Below are positions 4,936-56,836 of a DNA stretch of 64,000 bases, piece after piece (the first letter of the stretch is position 1; each line of letters starts with the position of its first letter). This DNA comes from Phoronis australis. Its lineage: Eukaryota; Animalia; Phoronida. Made by a program: the position numbers and the translations under genes. The notes under the pieces were generated by a model, which was not told the DNA's origin, made no database searches, and saw nothing but the letters and a program-made list of their open reading frames with translations. The DNA lies in the NCBI GenBank assembly GCA_002633005.1, contig NMRA01000165.1, positions 62,518-126,517 of the forward strand, written 5' to 3'.

Positions 4936-4949
4936 TGATTGTGTATATG

Positions 4950-5916: not shown

Positions 5917-6762
5917 AATGTTTTGCTAATTCATCATTTCCTTTTACCCTTTCCACGACAGAGTCCCGTTTGACACTGTTAGTAATCCTGTGTAACTTAG
6001 TTTGAGGTTCACGTCCAAACAACAATCTATTTGGTGATACTCCAGTCGAGTTACGCGGCGTAGCACGATATTTTCTCAAAAATGTGTACAGTTCCTGCTT
6101 CCAGTTTTTACCTTCCGTAACTGCAGCTCTCAGACATTTCATCAGCGGTTTATTGAAGGATTCTGCTTGCGCGTTTGCTCTGGGCCAATGCGGTGTTATT
6201 TTACGATGTTTAAATCCACTGTACTCTGCAAACTGTCTGAATGCATACCAATTAAATGGATTTCCATTATCCGATTTTACAACTTTCGGATATCCAAACA
6301 CAGAGAACATCTTATCAAGCACTGGAATCACTGTATTAGCAGATGTAAATTTCACAATTTCCACGACTGGGTAACGTGAATGTTCATCAATTACCACAAA
6401 TAAATAATCTCCTGACGGCACTGGTCCACAAAAATCCACACTTAGATTTTCCCAGGGATTATCAGGCATAGAGCTCATAGACAGTGGCTCTAAAACTCGT
6501 TTTTCTGGGTTCACAACTTGACAAGCTTAACAGTTCCGTATTTTGTTTTCAATCATGTTATCCATACCAGGGAATCATATGGATGATCTTAAGAATGCCT
6601 TTGTTCTCTGCATTCCTTGATGACCTTCATGCGCAATTTCAGTAGTCGATTAACGCAATGATGAAGGCATAACTATTTGATTGCCTCTCATCCGTAGACC
6701 ATCATTTGCACTTGTTAATTCATCTTGTGTGTTCTTAAAATCTGTCAGTTCGTCCACATTAA

Positions 6763-8225: not shown

Positions 8226-8964
8226 AACGCTCTTCGGCGTAATTGATTGGATGAACAGTTCTGGATCACTTGAGACAGAATCTCTTGATCCGCGTTTACA
8301 AAATTACAATTGGCAGCCAACTGTCTCAGTTCAGTAACAAATTCATCTAACGACTGTCCGGGTTGTTGTCTGTACGTCCGAAACTGATAGATGTCCATCT
8401 GAACATTTTTCTTGGGCTCAAAATGAGACAAAAGAACCCGTTTAGTGCCCTCATAGTCCTGCGTTGAGTCCCCCTTGTTGGCCTCATATATGTCGTACGT
8501 TTTGTCGCCAACGTAGTGCAACAGCAGCGCCCGTTTCCTGGCCCCGCTGTCCTCCGTGTCGGCGAGTCCCATGCCGACGAACAAGTTTTCTAACTTTCCA
8601 ATCCATCGTCCGGAACTTCGGGCCAGCGCTAGTGCTGTCCTCACAGTCAAACTGTGGAAAAACCGGCAAACCTCCTGCCTGCATTGTCCACGCTCAATGA
8701 GTGCAATACCTCGTCGCCAGTGTAATATTCTGATATTACGAAGTCAGAATATAAGACTTGCTTTGTCAAATACTTTTTTGAAACTAACTTAATTCACTAC
8801 AAGGTGGTTTATATAGAACAATGACTAAGCAGCATGCAATTCTTACAATCGAAGTGGTAATACCATATATAGAACTTCCTTTACTCAGAATCAATTAAAC
8901 TATAGTCTTGCACTAACTGGTATGCGTGAGTAATATATCTATAATTTTTTTCATCAAAACATTT

Positions 8965-9480
8965 CACCGGGCCACTGGCCGGGATAACAAGCGTTTTGTG
9001 TGTTTAGAAATCAAAAAAAAAAACAAGTCTAAACAACATTACACAGATCTAGGTTCTCCTGTCTGTATTTCACGGAAGAATAATTCGAATTTATCACCGA
9101 ACAGACCCAACCTCCTGCTACGGACCTTGGTAAACTGGCCTGCCGAATTTTGTAGGGTATGATGTGTCCAAATACCAATAAATAAGTAACAACGAAATAA
9201 AACAACACGTTTTTATAAGAGCTCGGTGTATTTTTAAGGGTTTTACATCGATGATTTATTGGTGTTAAACGGTGAATTCAAGCGATAAGCTGACACCAGT
9301 AACCCGTGTTGGGAACTGCTGAACAGTCTGCGTGTGAAACCAATGACGTCATTGGATAATTTCAAAACCTCCGTGTGCCGTCAGGCCTTGTCAGGTAACG
9401 CAACCGAAAGTGTCGTTATCGAGTAGAACTACTCGATCTAAATTGATACAAAATAGGTTGTTTTTGGGTGGCATTCTCCT
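8965..9480 (+). mobile_element. Kolobok family A right end (continuation of 4950-5916)
   Basis: Homologous to ~59540-60033 and ends GTGGCATTCTCCT|TTAA. Confidence 0.85.
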
Positions 9481-10837
9481 TTAATATTATATTAGAAATG
9501 CTATAATATTGTTGGTTTCCTGTGTAAATCACTACAGTGTGTAGTTGAAGTGACGTTAATGACAACATGTTGACTACGTTTTGAGAAAATCACAATATAG
9601 TATGTGTATTATAACTCTCAATGTTTTTAATGTCACATTTAACTCGAGATCATGAACTGATGATGCAGGTGAGCTTAGGACCAATACTACAAAACAGAAG
9701 AGTCAAACACAACGTACATTCAAGCCACACGGTGCCACAAGTCAATCTGTTCATCTCTGTATCGATGTTATCAGTAAAAATCAAGTAAAATCCCACCCGT
9801 TTTTATCAGCACACCAGTTTACACAATTTCTGGCCAATTTTTTTATCCCAGACGTTTATGAGTGAGAATCTTTGAATCATCTCGTGAAGTGTTGCCGCAC
9901 TCCCCTCTGTCACCATGGGCAAGCTCATCATCATTCTTTGACTACACTGGCTATTTGTTTTTTCCTTTTGCTGTCACAATTTTACAAGAAGATTCTACAC
10001 TCGCTTTCATCTCGGTGCTGCAACAATTTGTTTACCCCTGGCTGACAGGTCAAATGGAACAACTCCTGGGTGAGTCTTCAGTTTATAAACCCTTGTTCTC
10101 AGTGGTTTGTTCTAAAAGTTGATGCCTGGCCTGTATTTTTCAAAACCCTGGTCAGGTGTACCTTCACGTCGTGGGTAACATGTTCGTTGAAGCTCGCCAG
10201 TGAACTTGTTTCCTATAATGAGAATAAATTCGTTTGTGAGACTAAACTTGAATTATGCTTGATGTACATGTAGTGCTCATGGCAATTTAATTGAAATATG
10301 CTATGTTGTTGTTTAGTTTTGATACGAAAGTAACACAATAACCACACAAAATTGCACCACACTTATTTTGTAACCTTTTTCACGTTTTATAAGTAAAAAG
10401 TTCATTACTGTTCGACACACCACAATGCGTTCCCGATCGCATAAAGAAACACAAATTCGCATCTTTCAACAGAAAATCGTCGAAAAATCAGAGATCCTGA
10501 CAAGACTACAAAAAACAGGCGTTGCGTTATATTTTCACACCTCATTTCTTCATAACTCTATGGTCAATTTATTGATTTAGTGCCAAAAATAACGGCAATT
10601 TGCCAAAATGACATTCAAATCACCTTCGGCTTAAGCGATGCCTCGGTCAACGTAACTTTTTTTTCCTATAATTGGGAGAGACACTAGCCTAAACCTCTAC
10701 GTGCCCTTCCTAAATGTGTTACGCCAAGTCATGTCTCTGTTTTCACTTTGGAAGTAAAAAAAAACAAATTTACTCACCTTGCCTGGCTTCTCTTCTCGCG
10801 CCAAATTTCGTTCTCGATCGCCTTGGTTGGCGGGTTG

Positions 10838-15479: not shown

Positions 15480-16039
15480 AGTTATAAACAGTTAGGCAGT
15501 TGCTTGTGTATGGTAATGGTTCCCAGTTGTAGAATAGGTAGTACGGGTTCCAGTTCGTTGTGAATTGTGATGTAGTATTTTGTTAGGCCTGTAATATAGT
15601 CATTGTCGCGGGTCTTTCTAACGCTCTGATATATAGTGTCTGTTAATTAATTGCCGATTACTCGGACTGTGCTTTTTATTTCTTGTAGATAACCACTTGT
15701 TTGGTTTCACTTCTTCAACGCTTGTTCGGTTTCACTTTTTAACCCTTCTTCAGTATCTCTTTTTAACGCATGTTTCGGACATTTTTTCCATCGCCTGTAA
15801 CTCTATCGTTTCCCAATTCTGCACCGAATAAAGTGTGCTGTACAATCGGCCTCTCCAGTTATATTTTTCAACTCATCCCTGTAGCCAGACGCTGCTACAC
15901 TTTTAAAATAATGTGAGCGGAGTCTGCACTTAGTGACTGACGTGTGTATGCGTATCATATCTAATAAAATACCTCAACACTATCGTTAATACGATTCAGA
16001 TAGTCTTTCGAAAAACGTAAATATGACACCTCCAGTATC

Positions 16040-18768
16040 CCTGTAGAACATAGTAATAATGTGACATTTAATGAAGAAATTTTATGTTTAATTGATTCAT
16101 TATTGTTATCCTATGAACATCAGAACCAACTTGACATTGTGTATCAGTCATTTGCTGACCTATTAATTAAGGAAATGGAATATTTGCTGGACTACAAGGA
16201 TTATTATCCGAGTCGTAAACTAAGAAAGCACTTTAAAAGGAAGCAGCCTTACTGGAATTCGGAACTTAATGATTTGTGGAAAAAATCGAAAGACATTGAG
16301 AAACAACTTTCAAGAAGTCAAAGAGGACGCGGGAACTGGTCACATTATAAACAACTATTTCTGTCTGCTCAATATACATTTGACAAGAAACTAAAATGCG
16401 CGAAACGCTCATACCAGTTAAAGGTTCAGAAGAATCTGAATACTGAAAATCCTAAGCAATTCTGGGCATATATTAAGAAACTGGGACCAAAACAGTTTAG
16501 CGAAATTCCCCTGGAAGTCCTGGATTCAAATAATGAAATTAACTCTGACAAAAATTTCGTTCTAAATAGATGGAAAACTGATTACGAACAATTATTTAAA
16601 TGCACTTCTGAAAATACACTATTTGATGAAGAATTTTATTTGAAAACCTTGAATTTGCGCAAGCAGCTAGAAAATGATTGTTCTAATACTGCTGATCATG
16701 ACTTAAATTGTGAAATCTGTATTGATGAGGTTAGAAATGCAGTTATGAAAACAAAGAATAACAAAGCCGTCGGCTATGACTGTATATCTTATGAGGTGTT
16801 AAAATTCGACACTATTGTTGTTTTTCCAACCCAATTGTTCAATGAATCTTTTAAACGTGGACTAATGCCTTCTGACTGGTATAAGGCACTTATAATCCCA
16901 ATACCTAAGAATTCTACAGACGACCCTAGGTTACCTTTGAACTACCGTGGGATTAGTCTTTTTTCCAATATTTATAAAATCTTCAGTGCTGTGTTGAATA
17001 ATAGAATTTTGGGTTTCTGTAGACAGAACAATATTTTACTTTACGAGCAAAATGATTTTCGAAGCCAACGGTCTTGCATTGATCACTTATATGTCCTGTC
17101 ATCAATTATTCAAACAAGAAAGTCGACTAACCTTTCCACATTTGTGAAATTTGTGGACACGAAAAAAGCCTTTGACTGGACAAACCATGAACTTCTGTTT
17201 TATAAATTACTGCAAAATAATATTAATGGTAGAATGTATGATGCAATTTGTATGATTTACAGAAGTCCGTTGAACTGTATACGATTAAATGGCACTCTGT
17301 ATAGTGGTTGGTTCACTCCTGAAAATGGTGTCCTTCAGGGGGACGTTTTATCACCGACACTCTTTGCATTATATATAAATGACTTAGCTCTGGATATTAA
17401 AAAACTGGGTAAAGGTGTCCAATGTGGCCCGAACAATATTTCAGTGCTTCTTCACGCCGATGATATTGCACTTTTGTCTGAGAATGAAAACGACATGCAA
17501 GATATGTTGAAGGTTTTAAACAACTGGTGAAAAAAGTGGAGAATGGTTGTGAACATGGCAAAAATTAATGTTGTCCATTTTCGAGCTAAGTCTATGCCTA
17601 GAAGCAATTTTGAATTTAGTTTGAACAGTGTCATCAGTTATAAATCCTCATCCAAATATTTATGCTGTATTCTAAGTCAACTCATTGAGTCAGACTTCAA
17701 AGAAAGTTTGAATACGTTATCTGAAGCTTCTGGTAGAGCGTTAGGGAAGATATGCTCAACGTTCCGTGATAACAAGAATCGAGGATTCGAAACGTTTAAA
17801 ACATTATTTAATTCGTGTGTGGCACCAATTGTGGATTACGGGTCATCTGTTTGGGGTTACAAACATTTTTGTAATGTTGAAAATATCCGAAACAGAACGA
17901 TGCGTTTTTATTTAGGGGTCAACCGATTTACAGTCAACCATGCTGTTAGTGGCGATATGGGGTGGGACTCCACCGGAAATAGATTTAAATTGAATATGCT
18001 GCGTCTTTGGAACAAACTGGTAACCACAGGTGGTGATAGGTTATTGAAGAAGGTATTTCTATGGGACTACTCTGTTGGTAGAAAGGGTTGGATAGACGGA
18101 ATCAAAAATTTGCTTAACATAACTGACATGCAATCCTGTTTTCAAAATTTGACTACTTCTAACATAATAGATGCTAGAAACAAACTATTTGAATACGCGA
18201 AACATGCTTGGGCTGAATCTGTTGTAACTAAACCGAAGTTAAGAACCTACATTTTATTTAAGCACGAGTTTTTAACTGAGCCGAATGTAAAGATTAATTG
18301 ATATCGTTCTGAGCGGTCTCTTTTGGCTCAGCTTAGAGCAGGAAATCTCCCGTTGCACTTGGATTCTGGTCGTCATGTAAACACTCCTGTAAGTGAAAGA
18401 CTTTGCTTGTGTTGTGACTCTGGCTTTGTGGAGGATGAGCTCAGTACACTTTGTGTTTGATTGTTCTCTTTATAACTCACGGAGGTCTATTCTGTTTAAT
18501 AATGTTTCACTTCAAGTCCCGAACTTTGTAGATTTCACCAGATTAGGTACGTTAAAACTGCTATTTCAGTATTTCCCTAGGCAATTTGCCAAATATATGA
18601 AATCTGCTTTTGAACTAAGAAACCGACGCATTTATGGTAGGCCTACATCTGAGTTGTGTGGTTAAAGTGACTAATAAGCCCAAATGGGTTGTGTACTTAC
18701 GAATGCTATACCTATAACTGTTTGATATAATTGTACTTGTCACTATAATAAATAAATACTATTACTAC
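16040..18768 (+). mobile_element. 5'-truncated LINE (RTEX-like) ORF2, degenerate
   Basis: RT motifs NYRGISL, FVDTKKAFD, GVLQGDVLSPTLF and LLHADD. C-terminal KPKLRTY...ERLCLCC...HFVFDC region; AATAAA followed by a TAC/TAT tail at ~18750-18768; in-frame stops. Confidence 0.85.
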
Positions 18769-26223: not shown

Positions 26224-26312
26224 ATTTATGGCACAGTAGGCCTGCTTGTTACCCACACCTCTGGGTTGACCTGCAATAGACCACTTGAATTTCCCGAGAG
26301 TCGTCCAGTTCA

Positions 26313-27272
26313 ATGGCGTGCCCCTCAGTTCGCCTTCATAGCGGTTACAGCATCCCAGCTGTAGGACTCGGAACGTCCCGTAATACGTCCGAGGAGATTC
26401 AGAGAGCTGTGTACCTCGCACTTCAGCTTGGATACAGACACTTGGACACGGCGCACGTTTATCAAAATGGCGTTACTGTGGGCGCCGGGTTACGGACCGC
26501 TATTAGAGATGGCATTGTACGGAGAGACGAAGTGTTCATTACAGGCAAATTGTGGAATACTTTTCACAGATATAATGATGTAAAGGTTGGACTGCAGAAG
26601 GATCTTGATGAGATCGGAGTGGATTACTTCGATCTCTATCTCATACATTTCCCTATTGCGTTTGAGCGACTCGAGTCAGACGTGGGGAGCCCCGTGGATT
26701 CTCATGGCAATGTACTGACCACAGACGTTGAGTTCACTGAGACCTGGGCGGCCCTGGAACAATGTGTCCGCGAGGGCTTGGTACGATCCATAGGTCTATC
26801 TAACTTCAGTATTAGCCAGATTCAGCAAGTTTTAGACATGTGTACAATTCAGCCAGCTGTGTTGCAGTGCGAGGCGCATCCGTTTCTGCAGCAGACAGAA
26901 CTTGTCAATTTTTGCAAGACACGCAAAATTGTCTTCACCGCCTACGCTCCCCTAGTCTCACCAGAGCGCATTAAGACACACGGCGTAGTCGGCCCGAGTG
27001 TATTTGACGACCCTGTACTGGCTGAATTGTCTCACAAGTACAAGAAGACAGTGGCACAGTTTGTACTCAAGTGGCTCATTCAACGTGGAATCACCGTCAT
27101 ACCGAAAAGTGTCACTCCGAGTAGAATTGAAGAAAATTTTAATCTGTTTGATTTTGAAATATCGAACGAAGATATGGAGCGGGTAACTCAACTTGATGCC
27201 GGATTTCGAGCTGTCAATTTTCGTAATTTTCCGTCAGTTGCAAAGCATAAATTCAACCCGTTTAATGAATGA
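26313..27272 (+). CDS. Aldo-keto reductase (AKR1-like), intronless, copy 1, 319 aa
   Basis: IPAVGLGT, GYRHLDTAHVY, KLWNT, DLYLIHFP, RSIGLSNF and VIPKSVTPSRIEEN motifs. The Asp-Tyr-Lys-His tetrad is intact and the ORF is uninterrupted. Confidence 0.96.
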   Translation: MACPSVRLHSGYSIPAVGLGTSRNTSEEIQRAVYLALQLGYRHLDTAHVYQNGVTVGAGLRTAIRDGIVRRDEVFITGKLWNTFHRYNDVKVGLQKDLDEIGVDYFDLYLIHFPIAFERLESDVGSPVDSHGNVLTTDVEFTETWAALEQCVREGLVRSIGLSNFSISQIQQVLDMCTIQPAVLQCEAHPFLQQTELVNFCKTRKIVFTAYAPLVSPERIKTHGVVGPSVFDDPVLAELSHKYKKTVAQFVLKWLIQRGITVIPKSVTPSRIEENFNLFDFEISNEDMERVTQLDAGFRAVNFRNFPSVAKHKFNPFNE

Positions 27273-29748: not shown

Positions 29749-30557
29749 TGTGGTATATCAATGCGTGTTGTGGCCAACAGATGGCGCGCTCGTGGTAATA
29801 AATAAAAGAATATGCGAATACCTTAACAATAGAATACGTCTATTAATTTGCAACGTTGTGATTTACAAACAATAGATTACATCGAGTTAAGAAACTGACG
29901 ACTGTTCGAATGAAACGATATATCGTTACAGGTGAAAGTATTAATCTACAGTGCCACCAGTTACCCGTAGCTGGGAGTAATATATTGATCCTAGCCCGTA
30001 GCTGCCGCACACGTTAATGAAATACAAGTCGCAACATAAACTGACCCTCTAAAGCAATCACTAGACTGGTTCAAATTGACTAACAGGCTGAGACCAACGC
30101 CTGTATTAAGTGTTTATACCTTGACTCTTCTATTCGACTTCACTAAACTGGTTTTCCTCGCCTTTGCTGTTGGCTCCTCCTAGACATCAGGCCTGGGTCT
30201 GATTCACGGTTTTCGTCTCGGTCTAGCTCTGGTCTGGGTCTTGTTTTCGGTCTGGGTTTTGGTCTGTCTCGGTCTTGGTCTAATTCTCCTTGATAGCCAA
30301 TGTCTTAAATACTGTTCTAGCCGGCAACATATGATGGGCCCATCTCGTGACGGTTAAAGTCCCTGGTCAGAGTATGCACGTGACACTTGCATAACAATTA
30401 ATTAATTTGAATGGAACTTACCCAACAAAATCAAATCAGCTGACTATTGAAACAATTCTTGCATAACACCTGTGACAATCTCTGCTACAGTCAAAGATAT
30501 GATTGCAATGCACTTTTAATTTTCGGAAAGCAGAGGTCCTAGCCTCATTATAGTACA
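29749..30557 (-). repeat. 3' LTR of provirus copy 1 (809 bp)
   Basis: TG...CA ends, adjacent polypurine tract AAAAGGGGGGAG on -, and four homologous LTR copies in the window. Confidence 0.95.
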
Positions 30558-30969
30558 CTCCCCCCTTTTGTTAAGCCGAAAATTTACCAAATAAAAATTT
30601 GGGGAGCTATACCAAGCCTAAACAATGTAAAGGTTTCCTTCAGACGGTCGTTATACAATTGTATATCGAAACAAGTGAATAATAACACAATGGGAGTCGC
30701 CAGTCTCCGGATAATCATTAAAACACGTTAGCAAACGAAATCTCACAACCACTCTAAATTAGTCCGATTAAACGAATATATTGAAATCACACACATATAC
30801 ATTACTAAATCATACCCCGTACCAATCTAACATCATGTTACTATACTTCACGTTAACTAAATATGCCATTCTTCAACTCAGTTAAATCAACTCAAAGTAT
30901 AATTATGCGACACTTTACCTCAAACCAAACTAACTAAGAATATGTAGCACATTACACCTACATAATTAT

Positions 30970-31362
30970 TCATAACTGCAGCGGATGAGTCTGCGGCGTT
31001 TGGAAAAAGTCTGACGCCAACAGACTCTCCGGTACGTCCACCACCACTACAGGCATATGCCTGGTTCTCCCTTGTATTTCTATTTCAAGCGAGAAAATGT
31101 CAACCACGTCTGCCACACACTCCCTTCGGTCATAACGGACTTGGGCATATTGGGCGTCGCTCTACTTTGTTCAACCCCACGACTGTCTGTCGCACGACAG
31201 TCCCTTTAGAGTCTGCTTACCCCCGTATTGCACGCTCGCAAAATCTGCTAGCGACAACACAGTGGCGTCCGCCGTAGGGTCGACGCGGAAGACGATCCAT
31301 TGCCCTTCCACTGTTGCATCTAAACGGACAGCTGGTAACGTTTTGTACATCGGTTCGGGCAT
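30970..31362 (-). pseudogene. Fourth ORF: retropepsin-like protein downstream of env (two in-frame stops)
   Basis: One frame reads MPEP...TVEGQWIVFRVDPTADATVLS...WG*TK*SDAQ...FSLEIEIQGRTRHMPVVVVDVPESLLASDFF, preceded by TTTTGCAG|AAAAAAAATG. Confidence 0.6.
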
Positions 31363-31628
31363 TTTTTTTCTGCAAAAGCTTCCTAAGTTCCTTTAGATAT
31401 CGAAATAATTGTCAATGTTAATAACCACCACCTTTCAGCCAACCACCCAGTATACTGTAGTCTCTAGTGCGAGGGTTGGTAGAATTACCAGTAATTGTCC
31501 GAAGTCACACGGAGGTTTCTTCCAGGCCGTCTTCGGTTGCCAGATCCAAGTCAGGCTACATGCGTCGGATCAGTCGCTTCATCTCGATTGGCTTGCCATT
31601 CAGCTGAGCCGCTTTGGCGATGTGGTCG

Positions 31629-33496
31629 TCAGCACTGGGTTTCTCCCCAGCCAGTGACGTCTGTCGCCGGGGCATCGTTCGGCGCGAGCGCGTGTGCAAA
31701 CGCCGGCGGTGCACCGGCAACTGGGCGCCTATCACTGGTTAACACAGGCTGATACTGTTTGAGCATGGCACGTGCAATTTGTTTACGTCTTAAGAAAACA
31801 ATTAACCCCAAAGTCAAGACCAATGCTGCTATTCCTAGAGCGATATATAACCAAAATTCATTATCAGGGGTCCATGGTTTCGGGATATCTAAGTCACGTA
31901 AATCAGTGACTAGATTGTCTAACGGAATATCAGGTAAATGAGCGAGGCGTGGCGGTATTTTCACCCTCACGTGTTTAGGAAAAGCGACTATATAAGGAGA
32001 CCACATTATGAAGGATTCCTTCCGGATTCTCAAAACTCGAGCACTGAAACTATCTGGATGCTCGAATCTAGACTCTCTGTGAAAAGTTCCCAGGATAGTC
32101 ATAGTTGGGTGCGTGGCCTGGCACCCGTAATCAAAGTGTATCAAGTTTACCCCCAGTGTCCACCGTAATCGACTTGGTGTTAGTGCGGCTGTGGTTGCAC
32201 AGAAGGGAAAATCTTGTATTCTCGGTACTTACTAAAACGTACCAGCCAGATTTCAGGTATATGGCCATTGGTAAAGCCGTGTTCGTTCTAATGAAAACGC
32301 GGCAGAACATTTTGATAGCATCGTCAAACTTCATAAACAGCTCCACCACACAATCTTTGTTCGAATTGGCCGGGCGTAACGGTTGTGACGAGCACGTCTC
32401 CATATTGGCGTAATCCAATAAAGCGTAGGACGTTCGTTCTGGGTTTATGGTTAACGCCTTCGCTTCCAATGAATACTTGGCTAAAATGTGAGAAAGGTTG
32501 GAATAAGGGAAGAGAGCCGGCAGATTATGAATTTGAAATAATTCCATCCGTGCGTAAGATTCATTCAACGATATTCGAAAAGTGACCAAAATTAGTCCAT
32601 TTTCCCACGCAGTATGACAAGGGAGAGATTTATAGTATTGGAACAACTCTGTGTCCGGATCAAAAGGGAATTTTAAGTGGCGTGAAATGTTAGTTCGTAT
32701 ATCATTAAATATTTTGCGTAATGCTTCCGGCTGAACCACCGCTGGAGTGACTTGCCCCAGGGACACTATTCCTATTTGACTTTCGATGTGAGCTAAATAG
32801 CCCAAGGCTTTTTGTGCTGCCAATTCCAAGTGGTTTCAAGACAGATAAATTCTGTATTTCGTCGTGCAGCATATCAGTCACGTTATTAAGACGCTGCTCT
32901 ATTTCATGAGTTGAAAGGATTAAGTTCTTCAGGGTTTCCCGGTTTCTGTTTACTTCGGTTCTACTGGCTTTCATTACAGTTACCCATTTCAAGGCGTTAC
33001 TAACGATTCATTTTTGAATCCTTACTATCATATCGATTGTTTCCCTAATAGCGTTGATATCTTCGTCAGTGGCTGTACCGAAACTGAAAAGCCAATGACT
33101 GATTTTTCCTATAAACGATAAAACGTTCCGTTTGCTTCTGTCACCGCGAGATTGGGCTAAAGCGTTATAGCCATCTAACAACTGGTCTATAGCTTCTTTC
33201 GTAAATCTGATATCGTCAAGTTGTTTTTTCAGTCGGGTGCAATACCCCATGAAATTAGGATCTTTGGGATCAGCGTACATTTTCCTCACTTGAGTGTGCG
33301 CATAGTAAGCACGTTCAATGTCCTGTGAGAACTGAGACATGAAGTTAGAAAATTCGCTGAGGTCAATGAAACTCGTCACCCACCAGTGTCCCCATGAACT
33401 ATAGAATAAATTAATTTTCTCGAAAACTACCCCATATTTTACAACGACGCATTGCACGATACCAGCCAATAATAGTACACCCGTCAAACGTTGCAT
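31629..33496 (-). pseudogene. env: F-type (errantivirus / baculovirus-F-like) envelope, copy 1, frameshifted
   Basis: Signal peptide MQRLTGVLLLAGIVQC, furin site RSKR, fusion peptide with FGTATDED, cysteine-rich ectodomain and TM FWLYIALGIAALVLTLGLIVFL-RRK. Split over four ORF pieces. Confidence 0.9.
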
Positions 33497-33742: not shown

Positions 33743-36700
33743 CTATCGACCATCCTTAAATGTTTCTAACATCATGCGGCATAAATTTAGGTAGTCCGCT
33801 GAGGGAGTTTTGGTCGTTTTTCTGCACTTTCGGCCTATCCTTCGGTCCAAGCGCGAGACGACGTTCACGTCCATGGCGTCGTCATCCTGGAGTGGTTCCA
33901 CCGCGACGTCTGCATCCATCTCCTCTGACGGCATAGAGTGTTTGTCGTTTGGTTCTGAGAGGTCCGTCATCGGATCCGACTCAGCCGAGGCTTCGGATAC
34001 GTCGTCTTCTGACGATGGGATCACCTCATCATTCATCTGAGGTGCTGGCTTCGTCTGAGCCAACGTCTTCACTTGCCCCCTCTGTTGGAGCCTTTTTCAG
34101 AGTTCCGCTAAGGGTACATCAGAGTCATCGGAAGATGAGTCCCTCTTCATTTGGCGGAAATGGTCCTGTAGACCTTCGTGTGGAGCGGCTTCTGCTTCGT
34201 CGTCAGACATGTCACTGTCTTCGCTTGAACTGGGTGGAACGGCGTAGCGTGCCCTCCTCATCTGGGGGTAGTCGTCGTCCTTCATCTTCCAATGATCGAC
34301 TTGTGCACGTCTCAGGTTGTCTATGTGCGACTGTCTAGTATGTGTCAGTGACTTGGTAACCGTTCCGTCCAACTGGTTCCTGATGACGTACGTCTTGTCG
34401 GACAGTCGTTCCAAGATGCGCCAATAACCGGTCCATCTGGGGTCTAGTTTGCTGGTTTTAGAATTATTTTTGAGGTAAACAGGATCTCCAACTTCTAATT
34501 CAACTAAAACTATACCCTTTTTCTCCACTGCTAATCTTTTGTTCTGATGGTGCTTTATCATCCGATAAACTGTCCTAAAAACTCTACATGTATGTTGGTT
34601 TTGTAAGATAATCTTATGTTCGTCCTCGCCCACGTATTTAGCAAGTGGCCGCATTATGTTATGCACAGGAAGTTTAGGGTTTCTACCAAACATAAGAAAA
34701 TAACTGCTACACCCAGTATACTTGGTATGAAAATTCAAACATGACTCTGCTTGACTGAGATAAACATCCAATTGTTCCGGATTTTCACGGCATAATTTGC
34801 TCACAACGTCACCAAATACTTTTTGTGCTCGTTCAACTCGGCCATTTGCTTTTGAATTGTAAAAGCTGGTTGTAACATGCCGAATGTTAAATGATTCCAT
34901 TACGTCTTTCATGGTTTTGTTTATAAATTCGGAGCCAGTTGTCTGAGATCAAAATGTTCATTATACCAAATCTACAAAAGGTATCAGTGGTTAGGATTCG
35001 TGCGATTGTGGCGGCACTCTTATCCGGCATCGGATACAACAACGTATAATTTGAAAACCAATCAGTCAGAGTCAAAATATGTCGATTACCACTGGGTGAT
35101 GGTTTTATAGGGCCAACACAATCTATCGCTACCTGTTGCCAAGGGCCGTTCACAACATTGGACGCCCCTAGCGGAGATTTAACTGCTCTCAGATTTCGTT
35201 CCTGGCATGTAACGCATTCTGAACCATACTTCTCAATGTCTTTAAACATTCTAGGCCAGAAATAACTATTTCTAGACGATTGATAGGTTCTATCTATCCC
35301 TGCATGTTCTAGGTGATCATGATATTGTTTGATGACTAGCGACTGTAAATGTTCGGGAACATACAGACGAGTCTTAACGTCGCCATAATCATCGAAAACA
35401 TAATATAAGACATTTTCTTTCAGTGAAGACTTATTTCCAATTCTTTTCCTAGGCTTGGGAGACGATAGTTCATCGATTATTGTTCTGCACTCTTGATCCT
35501 TGTTTTGTTCCTCTTCCATATTTAATTTCAACTTAGGCATTTGTCATTCAGAGGTAAGATCAGGTATAGGAGGATCGACTCTCCATTTCGTGCGATTTAG
35601 GATCTACTCTGCTGTCATCTACTACGTTAATCTGTGCTACTGGAGCCTGAACCTCGAAAGTCCTATCGTCTATATCTAACGTTTCCTCGTCAACTGCATT
35701 ATCATCGTTAGAAGGCGCTCTGCTCAGCAAGTCAGCCATCGTATTGTCCTTCCCAGGGATATGTTTGATTTCAACGTCATAAGCCGAAATGAGTACCGAC
35801 CATTGCGCCACTTTCTTATTTTGAATATCGCTTTTGAGCAAATAGATGAAGGGTATGTGATCCGTGAAAAGTGTGATTTTGGAAATGTAAATGTAATGTT
35901 CGAATTTCTTAAGAGCCATCAACACTGCGAAACATTCCTTTTCAATGGTTGCCCCGCATTTCTGTGTGTCAGTCAGTTTTAGCGACATAAAATAGATGGG
36001 TTTTTCAACAGCTTCGTCTGGACACTTTTGTACCAAACAAGCTCCAATTCCAAAATCACTCGCGTCTGTGTATACATGTATAGTGTAACTCAATTTGGGA
36101 TCGGGATAATTTAGCATTGGAACTACGGAAAGATGTTCCTTGATAAATTGGAAAGCTTGTTCGCATTCAGGGGTCCATTTAAATCTGGCATATTTCTTTG
36201 TGAGTTCAGTCAATGGGGTCATAATGGCCGCTAAATTAGGAATAAACCTTCGATAGTATGACAGGATTCCTTGCAGTACCCTTACTTCTTTTACCGTGGC
36301 TGGTCGTTTCATTGATCTTATAGCCGAAATTTTGGCTTGGTCCGGGCGGATCCCTTCTTTATCCTGATCTACTATGAAGCCCAGATAGCTCGTTTCAGGC
36401 TTGAGAAACTGACATTTGGACAATTTTAACTCAAACTGTGTTCTCTGAGGCGTTGGAAAACAATTTTCAAGTGCTCAAGGTGTTCGGTAACACTTTTGCT
36501 GTAAATAATACAGTCATCGATATAGGCTCGAGGAAAAGGGAGTCCCTCTAAAACAATTGACATGAGTTCCTGGAAGAAACTGGGACTGTTACAAAGTCCG
36601 AATGGCATCATCTGAAATTGGTAAAGATTGTGACCCGTTGAAAACCCTGGGCAAAAGGCTGTCTTTTCCTTGTCATTAGGGTGCATTTGAATCTACCAAA

Positions 36701-37568
36701 AACCACTACATAAATCTAATGAGCTGTAAGTGCAAGAGCTTCTGAGATCGTTCAGTATGTCATCAATTTTAGGTAGGAAGAATGAATAACCTTTAGTTAC
36801 ACTGTTCAATTTTCTATAATCTACACAAAACCTTACGCTATCATCTTTCTTGGTTACTAATACTATAGGTAAGCAAAAGTTGGATCTAGAAGGTTCTATA
36901 TTTTTTGCCAAAAGCATTTCATCCACCGCTTCTTTGGCTATTTGCTGTTTCGCTATCGGAAGCCGATAAGGCCTCTGCTTGACAATCGTGCCGTCCGGCA
37001 CGTCTATGCGCATTTGTACCGTGTTCGTTTTCCCTAGGTCGAGGTCTCTTGCCGCGAAAACATCGCTATTCTGTTTTAATAATTCCTTCACTTAGTTACC
37101 ATACTCATCAGGTGTATCAATTTCAGATAGGTCTAACATTTGTTTACTAATCGACTGGGCTGATGCTGGTTTATCTAATACATTCACAATGTTTGCGTTA
37201 CGTACATGTAACTCTTCAACCTGGCCTACTGCAACTCCTCGTTTTATCTTGACATACCGGCCAGAATTGTTGATCATCTCTACTGGAAATTTACCAGCTT
37301 TGCCTGGCTTTATTATTGCATTGGAAATGGACAAGCCAGGTTTAGAATTTAGGGATTCCGGTCGTCAAAGGTGAAACTTGGAATATTTGCCGTTTGTGGC
37401 TACCTCTGGCTGTGCAAAATCTGGCACGACATACCATTTTGGAATTGACAACAATTTCGTTGATTACTCTAACATAAGATTTGACCAGTTAGTCTTGAAT
37501 TAGGAGTGTGTAATTTTTTTTATCCGCAACGTCATCCTGACCCGCGGAAGCTCTCGAGTCAATGCTTA
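33743..37568 (-). pseudogene. pol: pol copy 1 (RT, RNase H, integrase; protease deleted)
   Basis: YIDD, TDASDFGIG, H-H-CC integrase finger, IDCVGP / SDN / GRVER core and an acidic tail, with stops and frameshifts. Confidence 0.93.
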
Positions 37569-38491
37569 TTAGTTTCCCCTGGGGGTTAGCGTCATTTGGT
37601 GTGGTATCAGCAGGGCTTGGGTAGTTAACCGGATTTTGGTTCGTTTGGGTGGCCAAAAATCTTTTAAAACTGAAACAATCTCGTTTCATGTGACCAGGTT
37701 TTTTACAAAAGAAGCATCTGATTGAATTGACTATGGCGTTAACAGTTCTGGGCGCCCGATAGTCTCTCGTTCTATGACCCGTCCTGTTGCAAATTCTGCA
37801 TCTTTGAGGAGGGGATATTTTGTCCTTACGACTGATTTCCCTGTTATCTCCCGGTTTTAAATTCATTCGCGCCCAAAGGTGTATTTCTTGGACAATGACT
37901 TTAAGGGCGTCCTGAGGGTTGTTTCGCCCGTAAGACGTGCTCTCTTATTCTTGCGTCCCGGAGCCCATCCACAAAAAACCCAATTAATTGTTCTTGTAGA
38001 ACATCCAGTGCCGCTTGATCGTCAAATGCTTCGCGTGCCGCAGACAACAGTCGTTCGCCATACATTTGCACGCTTTCGTTTGGTCGTTGCTTAATTGATT
38101 TCAATCGACCGAACGCCAGACTTTTGTTTGTGATAGGGGCAAAACGTAACTTAAGTTCTGCTTTAAACTGCTCATATGTGCATTGTGGGTGGTCTGTCAT
38201 ATAACGTTTAATGAATGCCGAAACTTCACCCCCTCCCCCCCCCCCCGATCTTTGATATGCAATCAAGATCTGCTTTCTGGGGTCCATATTGGGGAAAATG
38301 ACGGCCATCTTTTCTATCTCGCTCACCCACGCTCGAAACCTATGAACATCTCTTGAGAAAACGGGGATATTTCACGCCAGTGACGTCTCACTCATGGAAT
38401 TCATGGCATTGGTAACATCTCTGGTGAAATTACCAGCAAGTCCCGTTAAAAATTCAGCTAAATCTACAGTTTCTTCTTGCTGATGTGCCAT
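37569..38491 (-). pseudogene. gag: gag copy 1
   Basis: QRPNESVQMYGERL, FFVDGLRD and two zinc knuckles (CRICNRTGH, CFFCKKPGHMKRDC); frameshifted. Confidence 0.9.
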
Positions 38492-38699
38492 ACTGCTCAG
38501 TGTTCAGACTATGCTAACTACTACACTACTTAGATATTTCGTCTCGCTCGCGAAAAGTTAAGGTCAGTCTCAAAACTTTAACACCGGGTAGAATCCGGGC
38601 CACGGTACCAAAAAGGACTCGTGTGGTATATCAGTCCGTGTTGCGGCCAACAGATGGGGCGCTCGTGGTAATAAATAAAAGAACATTCGAATACCTTAA

Positions 38700-41526
38700 A
38701 GGAGCATGCCACACAAAAAACAACCTAATTTGTATCAATTTAGATCGAGTAGTTCTACTCCATAACGACACGTACGGTTGCGTTACCTGACACCTGATGG
38801 CAGTCGGAGGTGTTGAAATAGGCCTTTTGCGAGTTTATAACAATAACGCGAGATTATGTGAGACTTAACTGTGACGTCACGGGAAGTGGGGCAAAAGCTT
38901 GTCGTTTGGTCATTTGCCCAATACGGTAGCAGAGTGTATTCTGTTATTGTCTTCGAGTTTTTAGCCGTTTAGTTCGAAAAATGTCCAAAAGCATTGCTGT
39001 TATGGCAAATGAACTTCAGATTCGCACTACAATACGTTCTATCGCGTTCTGTACTAATTTCGTCCCGTGTATTTTAAACGGGCGGTAGGCGAAATCCGCT
39101 CACTGATAAAGTTTTCACCTCGTCGAAAATACATTCTACACCTAAAATTAGCACCTAAAAGGCTCTTACTTTCTTCAGTGACTCTTTCTGCTTCTAAACA
39201 TATCTTCGATGAAGCATATATACGGGAATTCAGGTGACTTAGGCGAAGAATTCCAACTCCACTTTGTGGTTACTGTTAACTTTGTCCGCGCGCGCGATTA
39301 CCACAATCAAGTATTTCAGCTGAGTCAGGTGAGTATGAGGCAAAGGCTAGCGCGAGACTGAGCGAAGCGCGAGATCTGGCGCGTGACCTGGCGCGTGACA
39401 CTTGCAAAATAGCATGAGAAAATATCAAGTGAAATTTGTAAGATTTGTGTCCCTTGGACTTTTTGTTCGTCAACAGGCGTGATTTCACGTAACTTCCTCA
39501 AAATGGCGGCTCTTTAGTGAGAGAAACTCGAGAGAACCGCGAGGTTTTCATGAATATGCTCAAGTTATTTGTAGACTAAATTGTGTCCAGAGTCAGGGTA
39601 TGTGTTAATTATAACTTCATGTGCACATATGCATGTTTCATTTGATTTTATTTGCTGTATTTTGAAGTGAATATCTTTTTATGGGGATACACTATCGCCC
39701 CTGTATGCCTGCGCCATTCAGGCCTAGAGCGGGTTAAGTTCCAATTTCAGTCCGTTCACAGCTTCGCACAACATAACAAGGTCACATTTTCTTCGTCTAT
39801 TCACAGTTATTCCACGACCCATCTACCATATCTTATGTTGTTTTAACGTTTTAAGCGTAAAATTCACCATAAGAACTCCAGTAAGTTTTAGCGTGTGTAG
39901 CAAAGACTCGGGGCAAAACAAGAGCAATATGGCGGGTTTTGCCCCCTTTCAGGTGACGTCACAGTGACTAGCGAGAAACTCGCAAGTGAGCTATTATCCA
40001 ATGACGTCATCGGTTTCACATGCAGTCTGTTCAGCAGTTCACAACACGGGTTACTGGTGTCAGCTTATCGCTTGAAGTCATCGTTTAACACCAATAAATC
40101 ATCAAACTTCGATGTAAAACCCTTGAAAATACACCGAGTTCTTATAAAAACGTGTTGTTTAATTTCGCTCTTACAGATTTATTGGTATTTGGACACACCG
40201 TAACCTACAAAATTCGGCACGCCAATCGAGTCCGTAGCAGGAGTTTGGGGTCTGTTCGGAGATAATTTCGAAGTATTTTCCGTGAGATAAAGACAGGAGA
40301 ACCTAGATCTGTGTTGTTTAGACTTGTGATTTTTTGAGTTCTAAACACAAAACGCTTGAATATTATCCTGGCCAGTGGGTCGGAGCCCGATCAGGTCCGT
40401 CGCGGAAGGCCGGAGTTGACTCCGCCGTTATCCCGGCCAGTGGCTCGGAAACTGATCAGACATCACGAACATAAACCAGCCAAAGTTCAGTGGAAACTAA
40501 ACTTCCAGTCAAGAAAATACTATACTAGTGAGCCAAAGTAATGTGCACGTGATTATGTTGGTGAATTAGTCACGAAACTGCAAATCTACTTACTCGTCGG
40601 GGGCCGCGAATTCAGGCTCCGCTTTGGCTACAGCACCGCCAGGGCAGAAGTTGTACATTGACAATCATTATTTGAGTAACTTAAATGTAAATAAGGATTT
40701 CCTAACACCTGGCCGGGGGATGGAAATCAAGTTGTTTCACAAAAATTAGCATGAGCTGACACGGCCTCGGTGTCCCGTCAATTAGTTTTGTTGCACCTAA
40801 CGCCGGTAACGTGGTGATTTATTCATTGCTGGCTTCTCAAGTCATTTGCACTCACAAACACTCCAAAGGCATTACAAATTACATCTAATGAGACAGACTT
40901 TGTTTCAGTTTTATATTGGTTAGCGTGAGAATAGTTCATTTTGAAACAGAACGCTCAGTAATAAAGGCTAACACCGCAACTCGCAATACCTACTTAGGAC
41001 GAGCTAGAGGTCATCAGTCCCGACTTCGCAGGTGGATCGTTAAGTTTTACAGGCTATCAGTTCGGACAGGAATACAGTGATGAAGAAATGCTAGAAAGGC
41101 GCCGTGAACAAGCTCAGACAACGGGACGTATGGAGTTATTTGGTAAGCCAGCATTCGTCAGGCACTGTCGATGTCTGCAGGCCACAGACACGGAGATGTT
41201 TCACGGCCTCATACTTGCTATTTACAGCGTACATTTCATTCCTTACTACCATGAGCCACTTCCTAAGCATTTCGGACTCTCGAGGAAGTAAAAAAACGAT
41301 ACACCCGCTTTCTTCGCAGCTGCGTAGTTCGGACAAGCGGGAACGATGCACCGCAACATAGCGGCATTCACTCTGCATGTGAATCACTGACGTCGCTTGC
41401 GTTGTTTCTCACCTGCTTCACGCGACACCTCTTGGCAAGGTACTAGGTCGACCGTGTGCGAGGCGATGTGGATATAGACCGATTAAGAAGGCAAAAAAGA
41501 CTAATTAAATCGGGTGGCATTCTCCT
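38700..41526 (-). mobile_element. Kolobok family A element inserted in the 5' LTR of copy 1
   Basis: TTAA|AGGAGCATGCCAC...GTGGCATTCTCCT|GTAA. The empty site TACCTTAACAA is present in the other three LTRs. Confidence 0.92.
38820..39992 (+). mobile_element. ISL2EU/PIF-like non-autonomous element nested in the Kolobok
   Basis: AT target duplication, imperfect TIRs AGGCCTTTTGCGAGTTT / AAACTCGCAAGTGAGCT and a THAP-like start KHCCYGK.TSDS at ~38980-39030. It is absent from the 58441-60033 copy. Confidence 0.7.
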
Positions 41527-42233
41527 GTAACAAAAGAATACGTCTATTAATTTGCAGCGTTGTGATTTACAAACTATAGATTACATCGAGTTGTGAGACT
41601 AGCGACTGTTCGAATGAAACGATATATCGTTTCAGGTGAAAGTATTAATCTACAGTGCCACCAGTTACCCGTAGCTACCGCACACGTTAATGCAATACAA
41701 GTCGCCACTTGAACTGACCCTCTAAAACAATCACTAGACTGGTTCAAATTGACTAACAGGCTGAGACCAACTCCTGTATTAAGTGTTTATACCTTGACTC
41801 CTCTATTCGACTTCACTTAACTGGTTTTCCTCGCCTTTGCTGTTGGCTCCTCCTAGAGGTCAAGTCTGGGTCTGATTCACGGTTTTCGTCTCGGTCTAGG
41901 TCTGGTCTGGGTCTTGTTCTCGGTCTGGGTTTTGGTCTGTCTCGGTCTTTGTCTAATTCTCCTTGATAGCCAATGTCTTAAATACTGTTCTAGCCGGCAT
42001 CATATGAAGGGGCCCATCTCGTGACGGTTAAAGTCCCTGGTCAGAGTTTGCACGTGACACTTGCATAACGATTAATTAACTTGAATGGAACTTACCCAAC
42101 AAAATCAAATCAGCTGACTATTGAAACAATTCTTGCATAACACCTGTGATAATCTCTGCTACAGTCAAAGATATGATTGCAATGCACTTTTAATTTTCGG
42201 AAACCTTAATTAAATGCAGATGTCCTAGCCTTA

Positions 42234-44350: not shown

Positions 44351-45191
44351 ATTCAATATTACTTATTTATTGACAATAAATAATCTATTATGTTATTGCA
44401 CTAAAAATCGGAAACCATGCTATGTTGTCTTTCCAGCTGAGTACCGCCATAATGTTTACTTTTAACAAAAATCAACATTTAAAAATTAGCATTTAGAAAA
44501 TTCGACCACATGTATCAGGCACAGGTGTTTCACAGTTTATGGGCTGGAAATTACATTTAATCGGGTCTTGCTCGCACTGGACAATGCATAGCCATCATCA
44601 CTGATGAAAGCCGCTCACATTTTTGAACGAGCACCTTATCTCTGTTGTATGTTTTCTAGCTATATATGTCTACTGAATTGGCAACAATGTTGACAGTGTT
44701 GAGTGTACATTGGTTTATTGTCTTCATAATGCTTTAACGAGAACACGAGAATCTAGGTAGTTCAGTGCGCTGGTTTTTAAAATGTCATCAAACCCGTACT
44801 TTCGACAATCCAGGCTGCAACTCTGTTCATATGTCAGACTAAACAACCACCGCTGTTGAGAATGCAGTCCACTTCATTAGCTTGAGTACAAAGGGAGTGC
44901 TGAATAGGCTTATGTAAGTTGTCTGAGGGCAAAGGGAATCGGCGGTTATCAGTGTCATAGTGTTGCCCGTTGACACGACTTCCGTCTTTGGTTCTGTTAC
45001 CGAATGTTGAAGATTACCGTCGCATTATTTCTAGCACAGTCAGTATTTGTTACACACACCTCTGGGTAGTCTCCTACACAGACCCACGAGATTGGTTATC
45101 CGTGACGTCATCTTGTGAGGCCCGGGAACCAGGTTAACCTCTGGGTTAACCTGCAATAGACCATTTGAACTACCGAGAGTCGTGTAGTTCA

Positions 45192-46151
45192 ATGGCGTGC
45201 CCTTCAGTTCGTCTTCATAGCGGGTACAACATCCCAGCTGTAGGACTCGGAACGTCCCGTAATACGACCGAAGAGATTCAGAAAGCTGTTTACCTCGCAC
45301 TTCAGCTTGGATACAGACATTTGGATACGGCACACGTTTATCAAAATGGCGGTACTTTGGGCGCCGGGTTACGGACCGCTATAAGAGATGGCATTGTACA
45401 GAGAGACGAAGTGTTCATTACTGGCAAATTGTGGAATACTTTTCACAGATATAATGATGTAAAGGTTGGACTGCGGAAGGATCTTGATGAGATCGGAGTG
45501 GATTACTTCGATCTCTATCTCATACATTTCCCTATTGCGTTTGAGCGACTCGAGTCAGAAGTGGCGAGCCCCGTGGATTCTCATGGCAATGTACTGACCA
45601 CAGACGTTGAGTTCACTGAGACCTGGGCGGCCCTGGAACAATGTGTCCGCGAGGGCTTGGTACGATCCATAGGTCTATCTAACTTCAGTATTAGCCAGAT
45701 TCAGCAAGTTTTAGACATGTGTACAATTCAGCCAGCTGTGTTGCAGTGCGAGGCGCATCCGTTTCTGCAGCAGACAGAACTTGTCAATTTTTGCAAGACA
45801 CGCAAAATTGTCTTCACCGCCTACGCTCCCCTAGTCTCACCAGAGCGCATTAAGACACACGGCGTAGTCGGCCCGAGTGTATTTGACGACCCTGTACTGG
45901 CTGAATTGTCTCACAAGTACAAGAAGACAGTGGCACAGTTTGTACTCAAGTGGCTCATTCAACGTGGAATCACCGTCATACCGAAAAGTGTCACTCCGAG
46001 TAGAATTGAAGAAAATTTTAATCTGTTTGATTTTGAAATATCGAACGAAGATATGGAGCGGGTAACTCAACTTGATGCCGGATTTCGAGCTGTCAATTTT
46101 CGTAATTTTCCGTCAGTTGCAAAGCATAAATTCAACCCGTTTAATGAATGA
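45192..46151 (+). CDS. Aldo-keto reductase (AKR1-like), intronless, copy 2, 319 aa
   Basis: Same motifs as copy 1, with an ATG homologous to 26313. The 9 amino-acid differences all fall in the first ~125 codons. Confidence 0.96.
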   Translation: MACPSVRLHSGYNIPAVGLGTSRNTTEEIQKAVYLALQLGYRHLDTAHVYQNGGTLGAGLRTAIRDGIVQRDEVFITGKLWNTFHRYNDVKVGLRKDLDEIGVDYFDLYLIHFPIAFERLESEVASPVDSHGNVLTTDVEFTETWAALEQCVREGLVRSIGLSNFSISQIQQVLDMCTIQPAVLQCEAHPFLQQTELVNFCKTRKIVFTAYAPLVSPERIKTHGVVGPSVFDDPVLAELSHKYKKTVAQFVLKWLIQRGITVIPKSVTPSRIEENFNLFDFEISNEDMERVTQLDAGFRAVNFRNFPSVAKHKFNPFNE

Positions 46152-49100: not shown

Positions 49101-49339
49101 CTGGTCAGAGTTTGCACGTGACACTTGCATAACAATTAATTAACTTGAATGGAACTTACCCAACAAAATCAAATCAGCTGACTATTGAAACAATTCTTGC
49201 ATAACACCTGTGATAATCTCTGCTACAGTCAAAGACATGATTGCAATGCACTTTTAATTTTCGGAAACCGTAATTAAATGCAGGGGTCCTAGCCTCATTA
49301 TATTACACTCCCCCCTTTTGTACGTCCGCCACCACTACA

Positions 49340-50199
49340 CAGTGGCAGATCTAGGATATCACAAGGGGGGCCCAACATTTTGTCCGGCTGTAAGCATTTA
49401 CGCAAACCACGATTGTTGATGCGCGTAGCACCCAATGGGGGGAGGTCGGGAGGGGGGCAAACCTCCCGCCCAGGAAATTTTTCTGTTTTTTCCTCTAAAA
49501 ATCAAGTATTTTCCTTTATTTCTGATGTATTATCCAAGAAAAAAGGCAAAAAAAAAAAACACGGAGAACGTGTCACACACGAAAAACTGTGAGTTCCACA
49601 GACTCGAACTCACAACCTGGCTATACCACTACACCACCACGATTTCACTAATAACTTCAAACTAAGAGACCTACTTGTTTATGATCCACAGCGTTTGCGC
49701 GCGAAACCTACTTCTTTTTGTAATGTTTATTACACGTTTTATATTTTGTGCAATCGGTTCTTAACAAATTTGTTGTATTTGAAATAGTCTTCAAATGCCC
49801 AAAAGACCAAATCCGTTTTTCGTGTTGGCAATAATGACTTGATTGCTTTGGAAATCGTCTTAAGTGACGGTTTGACAAAGAGAGAATTAATGAGTTTCTG
49901 AGTGATTCACTAAGGCTTCGATTAAAATTCACATCTTACCAGCAGCTTCTGTTTTTTCATCGTCACTCAGGTTCCATTTTCTTTAAAAAATGAAGTAAAT
50001 TTTCTTCATTGCACAGTGGAGCAGACGAGGGAAACGGAGTCGTAGTGCGCAGCGCCACTGCCGGTCGCCTGGGATATAGCGGGAGAGCCTACACTTAGCC
50101 ATAGTTCCGTTACGAATGCGCCGTGTTTTTTTTTTTGCGGCAGCCAAGGGGGGGAGGGGGGCCGGGCCCACTGCCCCTCCCCCCCTAAATCCACCTATG
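49340..50199. mobile_element. MITE with 5-bp TSD inserted into the fourth ORF of copy 2
   Basis: CTACA duplicated (49335-49339, 50200-50204) and imperfect TIRs CAGTGGCAGATCTAGG / CCTAAATCCACCTATG. The empty site is at ~31047 in copy 1. Confidence 0.85.
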
Positions 50200-50515
50200 C
50201 TACAGGCATATGCCTGGTTCTCCCTTGTATTTCTATTTCAAGCGAGAAAATGTCAACCACGTCTGCCACACATTCCCTTCGGTCATAACGGACTTGGGCA
50301 TATTGGGCGTCGCTCTACTTTGTTCAACCCCACGACTGTCTGTCGCACGACAGTCCCTTTAGAGTCTGGTTACCCCCGTATTGCACGCTCGCAAAATCTG
50401 CTAGCGACAACACAGTGGCGTCCGCCGTAGGGTCGACGCGGAAGACGATCCATTGCCCTTCCACTGTTGCATCTAACCGGACAGCTGGTAACGTTTTGTA
50501 CATCGGTTCGGGCAT
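50200..50515 (-). pseudogene. Fourth (retropepsin-like) ORF, copy 2, further disrupted
   Basis: Same VDPTADATVLS motif, acceptor and two stops as copy 1. The C-terminus is lost to the MITE and a ~460-bp deletion. Confidence 0.55.
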
Positions 50516-55800: not shown

Positions 55801-56836
55801 TAGTTGGATCTAGAAGGTTCTATAACTTTTGCCGAAAGCATTTTATCCACCGCTTCTTTGGCTATTTGCTGTTTCGCTATCGGAAGCTGATAAGGCCTTT
55901 GCTTGACAATCGTGCCGTCCGGCACGTCTATGCGCATTTGTACCGTTTTCGTTTTCCCTAGATCGAGGTCTGTTGCCGCGAAAACATCGCTATCCTGTTT
56001 TAATAATTCCTTCACTAAGTTACCATACTCATCAGGTGTATCAATTTCAGATAGGTCTAACTTTTGTTTACTAATCGACTGGGCTGATGCTGGTTTATCT
56101 AATACATTCACAATGTTTGCGTTACGCAACTCTTCAACCTGGCCTACTGCAACTCCTCGTTTTATCTTGATATACCGGCCAGAATTGTTGATTATCTCTA
56201 ATGGAAATTTACCAGCTTTGCCTGGCTTTATTATTGCATTGGAAATGTACAAGCCAGATTCATAATTTAGGAATCCGGTCGTCAAAGGTGAAACTTGGAA
56301 TACTTGCCGTTTGTGGCTACCTCTGGCTGTGCAAATTCTGGCGCGACATACCATTTTGGAATTGACAACAATTTCGTTGATTACTCTAGCATAAGATTTG
56401 ACCAATGAGTCTTGAATTAGGGGTGTGTAAAATTCTTTTATCCGCAACATTCTAAGATCAAAGTATACACGACAATTATTCTTATGGAGAAAGTCTTTCC
56501 CGATTAGCATTCTTCGGTTCACATCACGAATTACAACAAAATCATGTTTGAGAATATTGTTTCCAATTTTTCAATTCAACATGACGCAAGCGAGGACATT
56601 TAACCGTTAATTATTTGCTGTCTGCACTACAGGTTTTCGATTGACCATTTCTACTAGGCCTTTTCGTTTAAGTTCCTCAAACGTAACTTCCGATATAACC
56701 GAAATTGCAGCACCCGATTCTATTAATGCCCTGACTCGCGTCTGTCCCACTTGTACTTGAATACTATCCTCGCTTCCCAAAAAACATAAAGTTACTACGT
56801 CATCCTGACCCGCGGAAGCTCTCTAGTCAGTGCTTA
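52842..56836 (-). pseudogene. pol: pol copy 2 (PR, dUTPase-like insert, RT, RNase H, IN)
   Basis: 679-aa open stretch 54483-56522 with RT and RNase H. Protease RALIESGAAISVI (~56690-56740, D>E); integrase in pieces. Confidence 0.94.

Follow-up and report, generated by a model that had tools for sequence, protein, structure and literature searches.

The window analysed here is a 64,000-nucleotide stretch of a Phoronis australis contig (NMRA01000165.1) that carries two copies of a Ty3/gypsy retroelement with long terminal repeats (LTRs). Behind env the element has a further reading frame, ORF4, which sits between env on one side and the polypurine tract (PPT) and 3' LTR on the other. Differences among RNA reads indicate that selection has kept the ORF4 frame in this family and that ORF4, decayed here, is a real fourth gene; this status is assigned because of the synonymous bias of the differences, not because of the length of the frame. 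Our best explanation, held tentatively, is that ORF4 is a decayed copy of this selected gene, likely expressed from its own spliced RNA, possibly with a non-catalytic fold derived from a retropepsin, and likely a peptide-binding helper of assembly. With the same reserve, the element may represent a lineage of enveloped invertebrate retroelements with a separately expressed pseudo-protease behind env, that is, with a gag-pol-env-PR' layout.

A fourth reading frame behind env

The frame, two peptides quoted from it and its two in-frame stops had been pointed out in a preliminary description of this DNA, and all were confirmed. The motifs that it gave ahead of the two start codons were likewise found as quoted: TTTTGCAG|AAAAAAA ATG for ORF4 (31377-31360) and TTTCAG|ATAAA ATG for env (33507-33494, with the ATG at 33496). 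ORF4 has no hydrophobic segment of sufficient length for a membrane anchor (maximum KD19 1.02). Read-through or frameshifting from env was rejected: ORF4 is not an extension of env, because the frame it occupies is a different one, begins only after a stop that precedes the ATG by 11 codons, and comes after the tail frame of env, which ends by 31418 and aligns by eye with the tail of the env relative P0004.

Selection on the frame

RNA reads were taken from three runs (X1, X2 and X3) with the same species label as the window, and about one fifth of each run was read. The reads are mostly 85-95% alike to the window, with a depth over the frame of up to 19, and judged by sequence they sample related copies. 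The first stop is carried by none of the 26 reads that cover it (absent in 15/15, 10/10 and 1/1 across the three runs). At the second stop all 25 covering reads of X1 and X2 differ from the window, many of them by a pair of one-base insertions or deletions (indels) that preserves the frame. Read indels across ORF4 mostly keep the frame, and one is an in-frame insertion of three bases at the turn of the predicted hairpin. A two-base deletion in three of five X2 reads marks another decayed copy.

Among the listed differences used in the selection test, 16 of 25 are synonymous and 9 non-synonymous, 18 fall at third positions, and pN/pS is about 0.2 (0.17-0.24; binomial p 2e-5 to 5e-4, n=25 listed differences). 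Permutations matched for base and CpG context gave an expectation of 7.2 synonymous differences, and 2 of 10,000 reached 16. Seven of the nine replacements lie within codons 44-52, between two motif blocks, and codons 13-42 and 69-108 together hold 13 synonymous listed differences and one replacement. At codon 29 (Pro) the only difference listed is silent. The claim of a fourth gene is thereby supported.

Several points weigh against a gene. The test draws on 40 of 101 read differences that were listed, 28 of them within the frame, from which 3 in or between the break codons were dropped. The length of the frame by itself is barely above chance, since 55 of 1000 shuffles reach it. Searches for ORF4 homologues yielded none that could be used: none was found among 32 candidates, none of 6 and none of 226 pattern matches was usable, and tblastn of ORF4 gave no match in 31 pol-bearing loci. 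ORF4 could then be a neutral relic, or selection could act on the antisense frame or on the RNA; most reads may indeed be antisense (see below), and in the other five frames 1, 5, 4, 5 and 14 of the 25 differences are synonymous, the 14 belonging to the exact antisense frame. However, the antisense frame is high because its third positions are shared with ORF4; it has two stops of its own, at one of which no difference is listed at a depth of about 17, and it has no long ATG-led stretch. Furthermore, the synonymous excess survives matching for base and CpG context (p ~2e-4), and the indels mostly respect the ORF4 frame. We regard the absence of a gene as largely refuted, and as the least probable of the explanations considered.

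Possible relationship to retropepsins

For the protease fold claimed in the preliminary description several weak profile matches agree, but none is significant alone; a retropepsin fold is therefore suggested rather than established. In a scan of 24,736 Pfam families the sole match of ORF4 was gag-asp_proteas (PF13975; residues 15-45, E 0.26), at 12.3 bits against a curated cut-off of 28.2, whereas the decayed pol protease of the element scores 32.2 bits. The EIAV protease is one of four PDB sequences found at E<=10, and it matches in two colinear blocks (E 0.55). With a profile built from 44 related pol proteases ORF4 scores 4.0 bits (8 of 5000 shuffles as good), and a mixed protease profile is equalled by 13 of 5000 shuffles; the signal of both comes from the C-terminal half of ORF4 alone. 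A two-block matrix, unprompted, sets its blocks at D28 and A116.

The likeness to retropepsins of clan AA (PF13975, EIAV protease, Ddi1-type) lies in the order of the blocks: a hydrophobic strand with Asp-x-x-A-D, then a hairpin with LLxxDF. ORF4 differs from them in its longer middle, its short C-terminus, its own ATG, and in having D-P-T for D-T/S-G and A-S-D for G-R-D. The active-site motif D-T/S-G-A is absent, the best placement reading D-P-T-A, and L-L-A-S-D-F stands in place of the G-R-N/D helix motif; all 64 of 64 reference proteases, a set chosen that way, keep D-[ST]-G. The motif changes described earlier (DTG to DPT, LLGxD to LLASD) hold for copy 1 but not in full for copy 2, as the LLASDF block is present in copy 1 only.

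Against a retropepsin fold, 77 of 5000 shuffles are as good with a viral-heavy protease profile and 14 of 200 with hhalign, and the two-block matrix scores as high on 79 of 2000 shuffles, on 164 of 1962 tiles of the window and on 7 of 134 tiles of real non-protease sequence. The block spacing is 88 in ORF4 versus 68-76, and residues 1-45 find no support from two profiles (331/3000 and 1759/3000 shuffles as good). The Pfam scan gave no family for the two unbroken halves or for copy 2, and no resemblance was seen between ORF4 and the protease of the element itself (699 of 2000 shuffles as good). The best single database match, one among 1.84 billion representatives, is an IPT/TIG repeat protein, with E 3.4e-08 summed over 7 stretches. 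Origin of ORF4 by recent duplication of the element's own protease was rejected on the same 699 of 2000 shuffles. Single-sequence AlphaFold modelling speaks neither for nor against the fold: ORF4 gave a pLDDT of 34.8 and no Foldseek or VIA match; the true pol protease, as a control, gave 36.1 and no retropepsin among 20 matches.

ORF4 might instead be a real accessory gene of an unrelated beta-rich fold, with coincidental protease motifs, an explanation that we consider only a little less probable than the preferred one. Every protease score is sub-significant, the N-terminal half is without support from two profiles, the motif spacing is at least 12 residues too long, and the IPT/TIG protein is the sole library match. 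That match, however, is confined to residues 34-67 of an 85-residue domain, overlapping the most variable codons; its flanks do no better than shuffles (1152/3000 and 1124/3000 as good), Pfam TIG is not matched by ORF4, and a relationship was rejected as a summed-repeat match. Moreover, three different libraries point to retropepsins, with the blocks in the right order. Searches of ORF4 against NCBIfam gave no family, and against PHROG one of unknown function (E 0.38).

Proposed splicing and expression

The proposed mechanism would join a 5' leader by splicing to an acceptor at 31370, in the way also proposed for env. The motif makes an acceptor at this position plausible. Acceptor-like motifs are common (3.84 per kb), and three points count against splicing: no junction, start pile-up or loose end was seen at 31370 (depth 2-4 per run, threshold 3 reads), reads run across 31370, and most reads may be antisense. 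In X1 and X2 most first mates map to the minus strand; those of X3 map, over ORF4, to the plus strand. A first mate on the minus strand means antisense RNA in most libraries. Just upstream lies a 40-base stretch (31397-31436) that is preserved, with 2 differences, in a contig of otherwise dissimilar sequence; this would be consistent with a conserved signal or with the end of the env coding sequence. Loose read ends at 31436 (7 reads, 1 contig) were set aside, since by eye they resemble a diverged subfamily rather than an exon. By analogy with Tor elements, whose 3' genes have internal promoters (PMC4402516), an internal promoter would be an alternative to splicing for ORF4.

RNA depth over parts of the LTR (29830-30530) rises to ~300 on one strand. 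Two short LTR pieces lie in a contig of 3,172 bases, so that an LTR fragment is probably part of a host transcript.

Proposed function of the product

The product would be a soluble protein of 130 residues, possibly derived from a retropepsin and without protease activity. Its protease ancestry would be old or foreign, because no resemblance to the protease of the element itself could be detected. With catalysis and the usual dimer contacts lost, binding of the Env tail or of Gag or Gag-Pol linkers would be left as its role, not cutting or poisoning. Binding is preferred because ORF4 encodes a small, soluble protein next to env, and because Gag is short before its capsid domain. The favoured, though conjectural, reading is that the product would link the capsid to the Env tail or guard cleavage sites.

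Retropepsins are homodimers whose terminal strands form the dimer platform; in their active-site motif D-T/S-G-A the Thr/Ser is essential for the dimer grip and the Gly is highly conserved (PMC7072860). ORF4 has Pro at the grip position. It ends only 11 residues after the helix block, two of them prolines, whereas in the six lineage proteases compared hydrophobic strands follow there. If ORF4 is a retropepsin, both catalysis and dimer poisoning are thus improbable.

That ORF4 is an active but atypical aspartic protease, with the Env tail or a protein of the host trimmed by it, is unlikely. Retroviral proteases do trim some Env tails, and the Asp at codon 28 is present with no difference listed at a depth of 7-12. 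The feline foamy virus retropepsin, furthermore, is active without the motif Gly (PMC7072860). This has to be set against Pro for the grip Thr/Ser, Thr for Gly, Ala-Ser for Gly-Arg, and the short end after the helix block.

The preliminary description had proposed a dimer-poisoning regulator, here an inhibitor of the pol protease. Inactive retropepsin monomers are able to inhibit in trans, a point on which the literature search gave no paper. That retropepsins act as homodimers (PMC7072860) is in keeping with such a role, but the grip residue and the C-terminal pairing strands are missing and ORF4 has no sequence likeness to the protease that it would have to pair with. The proposal is disfavoured, and we think it slightly less probable still than an active enzyme.

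Comparison with other retroelements

In its LTRs, gag, pol (PR-RT-RH-IN) and F-type env the element resembles the 'ancient errantiviruses' (PMC13524379), a group of Ty3/gypsy elements of gag-pol-env layout that have an F-type Env and occur across invertebrates. It differs in the fourth selected frame after env; an ORF in that place was not found in the available passages of that survey, which sought three ORFs and whose authors left other arrangements aside. Cer1 of C. elegans also encodes an extra protein, CERV, which is made from a spliced mRNA (for ORF4 splicing is only proposed), but CERV is nuclear and exports genomic RNA (PMC10309623). Small accessory ORFs, sORF1 and sORF2, were first recognised through low dN/dS in the Drosophila MDG1 group (PMC11952523); those elements lack env, most of their sORFs precede gag, and sORF2, unlike ORF4, contains a membrane segment. 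The non-env ORF3s of bdelloid and plant elements (PMC5408684, PMC7264820) are likewise family-specific cargo between pol and the 3' LTR, but they replace env, whereas ORF4 follows it, and they have GDSL, DEDDy or unknown domains. The word 'protease' is absent from the accessible text of the plant LTR-element review (PMC7264820).

No element in which gag, pol and env are followed by a protease-like ORF was found in the literature searched, which did not extend to subscription journals or Repbase; the layout was already unfamiliar to the preliminary description. Ty3/gypsy elements with env are regarded as having three genes; by retroviral usage a selected fourth one renders this family 'complex'. 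The interval from env to LTR in the 1,512 catalogued elements (PMC13524379) therefore seems worth screening. If the fold is that of a dead retropepsin, a retroelement would have put its maturation enzyme to a new, non-catalytic use, and ORF4 would be a direct candidate for linking capsid to envelope or for timing maturation in such particles.

The element and its two copies

The order of the element is 5' LTR, gag, pol, env, ORF4, about 390 A+T-rich bases, PPT and 3' LTR (819 bases; Table 1). LTRs, PPT, gag, pol as PR-RT-RH-IN and a class F env after pol place it among errantivirus-like Ty3/gypsy elements. The sole env relative found, P0004, is 57% identical and itself matches Baculo_F (E 1.8e-15); the named relatives of pol are molluscan Ty3/gypsy proteins (42-44%), which makes a marine invertebrate the likely host. 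No loci with a related env were found, the pol scans leading to 31 loci that all lack env.

A deletion of ~349 bases removed most of the pol protease from copy 1. In copy 2 a normal pol protease is confirmed (Pfam E 1.7e-07; four aspartic-protease families at E<0.001), and ORF4 is therefore additional to it.

Table 1. Coordinates of ORF4 and of the element in the window.
Feature	Position	Strand	Remarks
ORF4 (copy 1)	30970..31362	-	130 codons, ATG at 31362, end at 30970; stops at codons 64 and 67
D-P-T-A-D block, codons 28-32	31267..31281	-	at the place of retropepsin D-T/S-G-A; putative correspondence
Predicted beta hairpin (codons 85-109) and LLASDF block (114-119)	31003..31108	-	carries the protease-profile signal
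Spacer	31363..31417	-	55 bases, A+T-rich; acceptor-like TTTTGCAG ending 31370, putative acceptor
ORF4 (copy 2)	50200..50515	-	codons 1-105, same two stops; cut at 50200
gag	37560..38491	-	capsid and two zinc knuckles; broken; N-terminus ahead of capsid domain short
pol	33743..37560	-	RT, RNase H, integrase; broken; ~349 bases with most of the protease missing from copy 1
env, F type	31418..33496	-	interrupted by stop codons and frameshifts; a furin-like site, a fusion peptide and a membrane anchor can still be made out
Acceptor-like TTTCAG before env	ends 33502	-	motif
Polypurine tract	30568..30579	-	
3' LTR	29749..30567	-	TGT...ACA; then AATG
5' LTR of copy 1	38622..42231	-	split by later insertion, ~38700-41523
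Canonical pol protease of copy 2	56427..56774	-	decayed; ORF4 is additional to it

The two copies share their 3' flank and the adjoining aldo-keto reductase gene and differ at 3 positions in 654 bases of the ORF4 region; they are a single insertion within a segmental duplication. Because one insertion was duplicated with its flank, the shared stops belong to that insertion and say little on age. The earlier statement that the stops are common to both copies and predate the duplication holds in that they are shared, but they are not ancestral, as related transcribed copies are without the first stop. The last 25 codons of ORF4 are missing from copy 2. This end and the 3' untranslated part up to the PPT have given way to ~880 unrelated bases (49321-50199), which match nothing else in the window. 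AATG after the 3' LTR of copy 1 also stands before the 5' LTR of copy 2, and is likely a 4-base target duplication.

The aldo-keto reductase frame (26289-27272 and 45150-46151, plus strand; Pfam E 4e-48) is intronless, lies ~2.5 kb past the 3' LTR and was duplicated along with the element. The insertions that split both 5' LTRs (38700-41523 and 58437-60037) share sequence in opposite orientation, and this sequence recurs at 4948-5886 and 8971-9484. At 38595-38612 (minus strand), ~11 bases inward of the 5' LTR end, is what we take to be a primer-binding-site-like sequence, resembling the 3' end of tRNA-His. After the integrase core pol has a long acidic tail of low complexity (33743-34340, minus strand).

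Other elements in and beyond the window

Remnants of another LTR element occupy 3300-8700, with their own DTGAD protease at ~3450 (plus strand). Long frames at 16004-18301 (plus strand) with a reverse transcriptase domain (Pfam E 1e-24) are probably a non-LTR element. Among the sequences searched, Ty3/gypsy pol sequences filed under bacterial symbiont genomes (L001 and the proteins P0030, P0045 and P0122) are likely host contamination. The viral records L021 and L030, which look like plant pararetroviruses, each have two separate retropepsin-like domains with intact DTG motifs.
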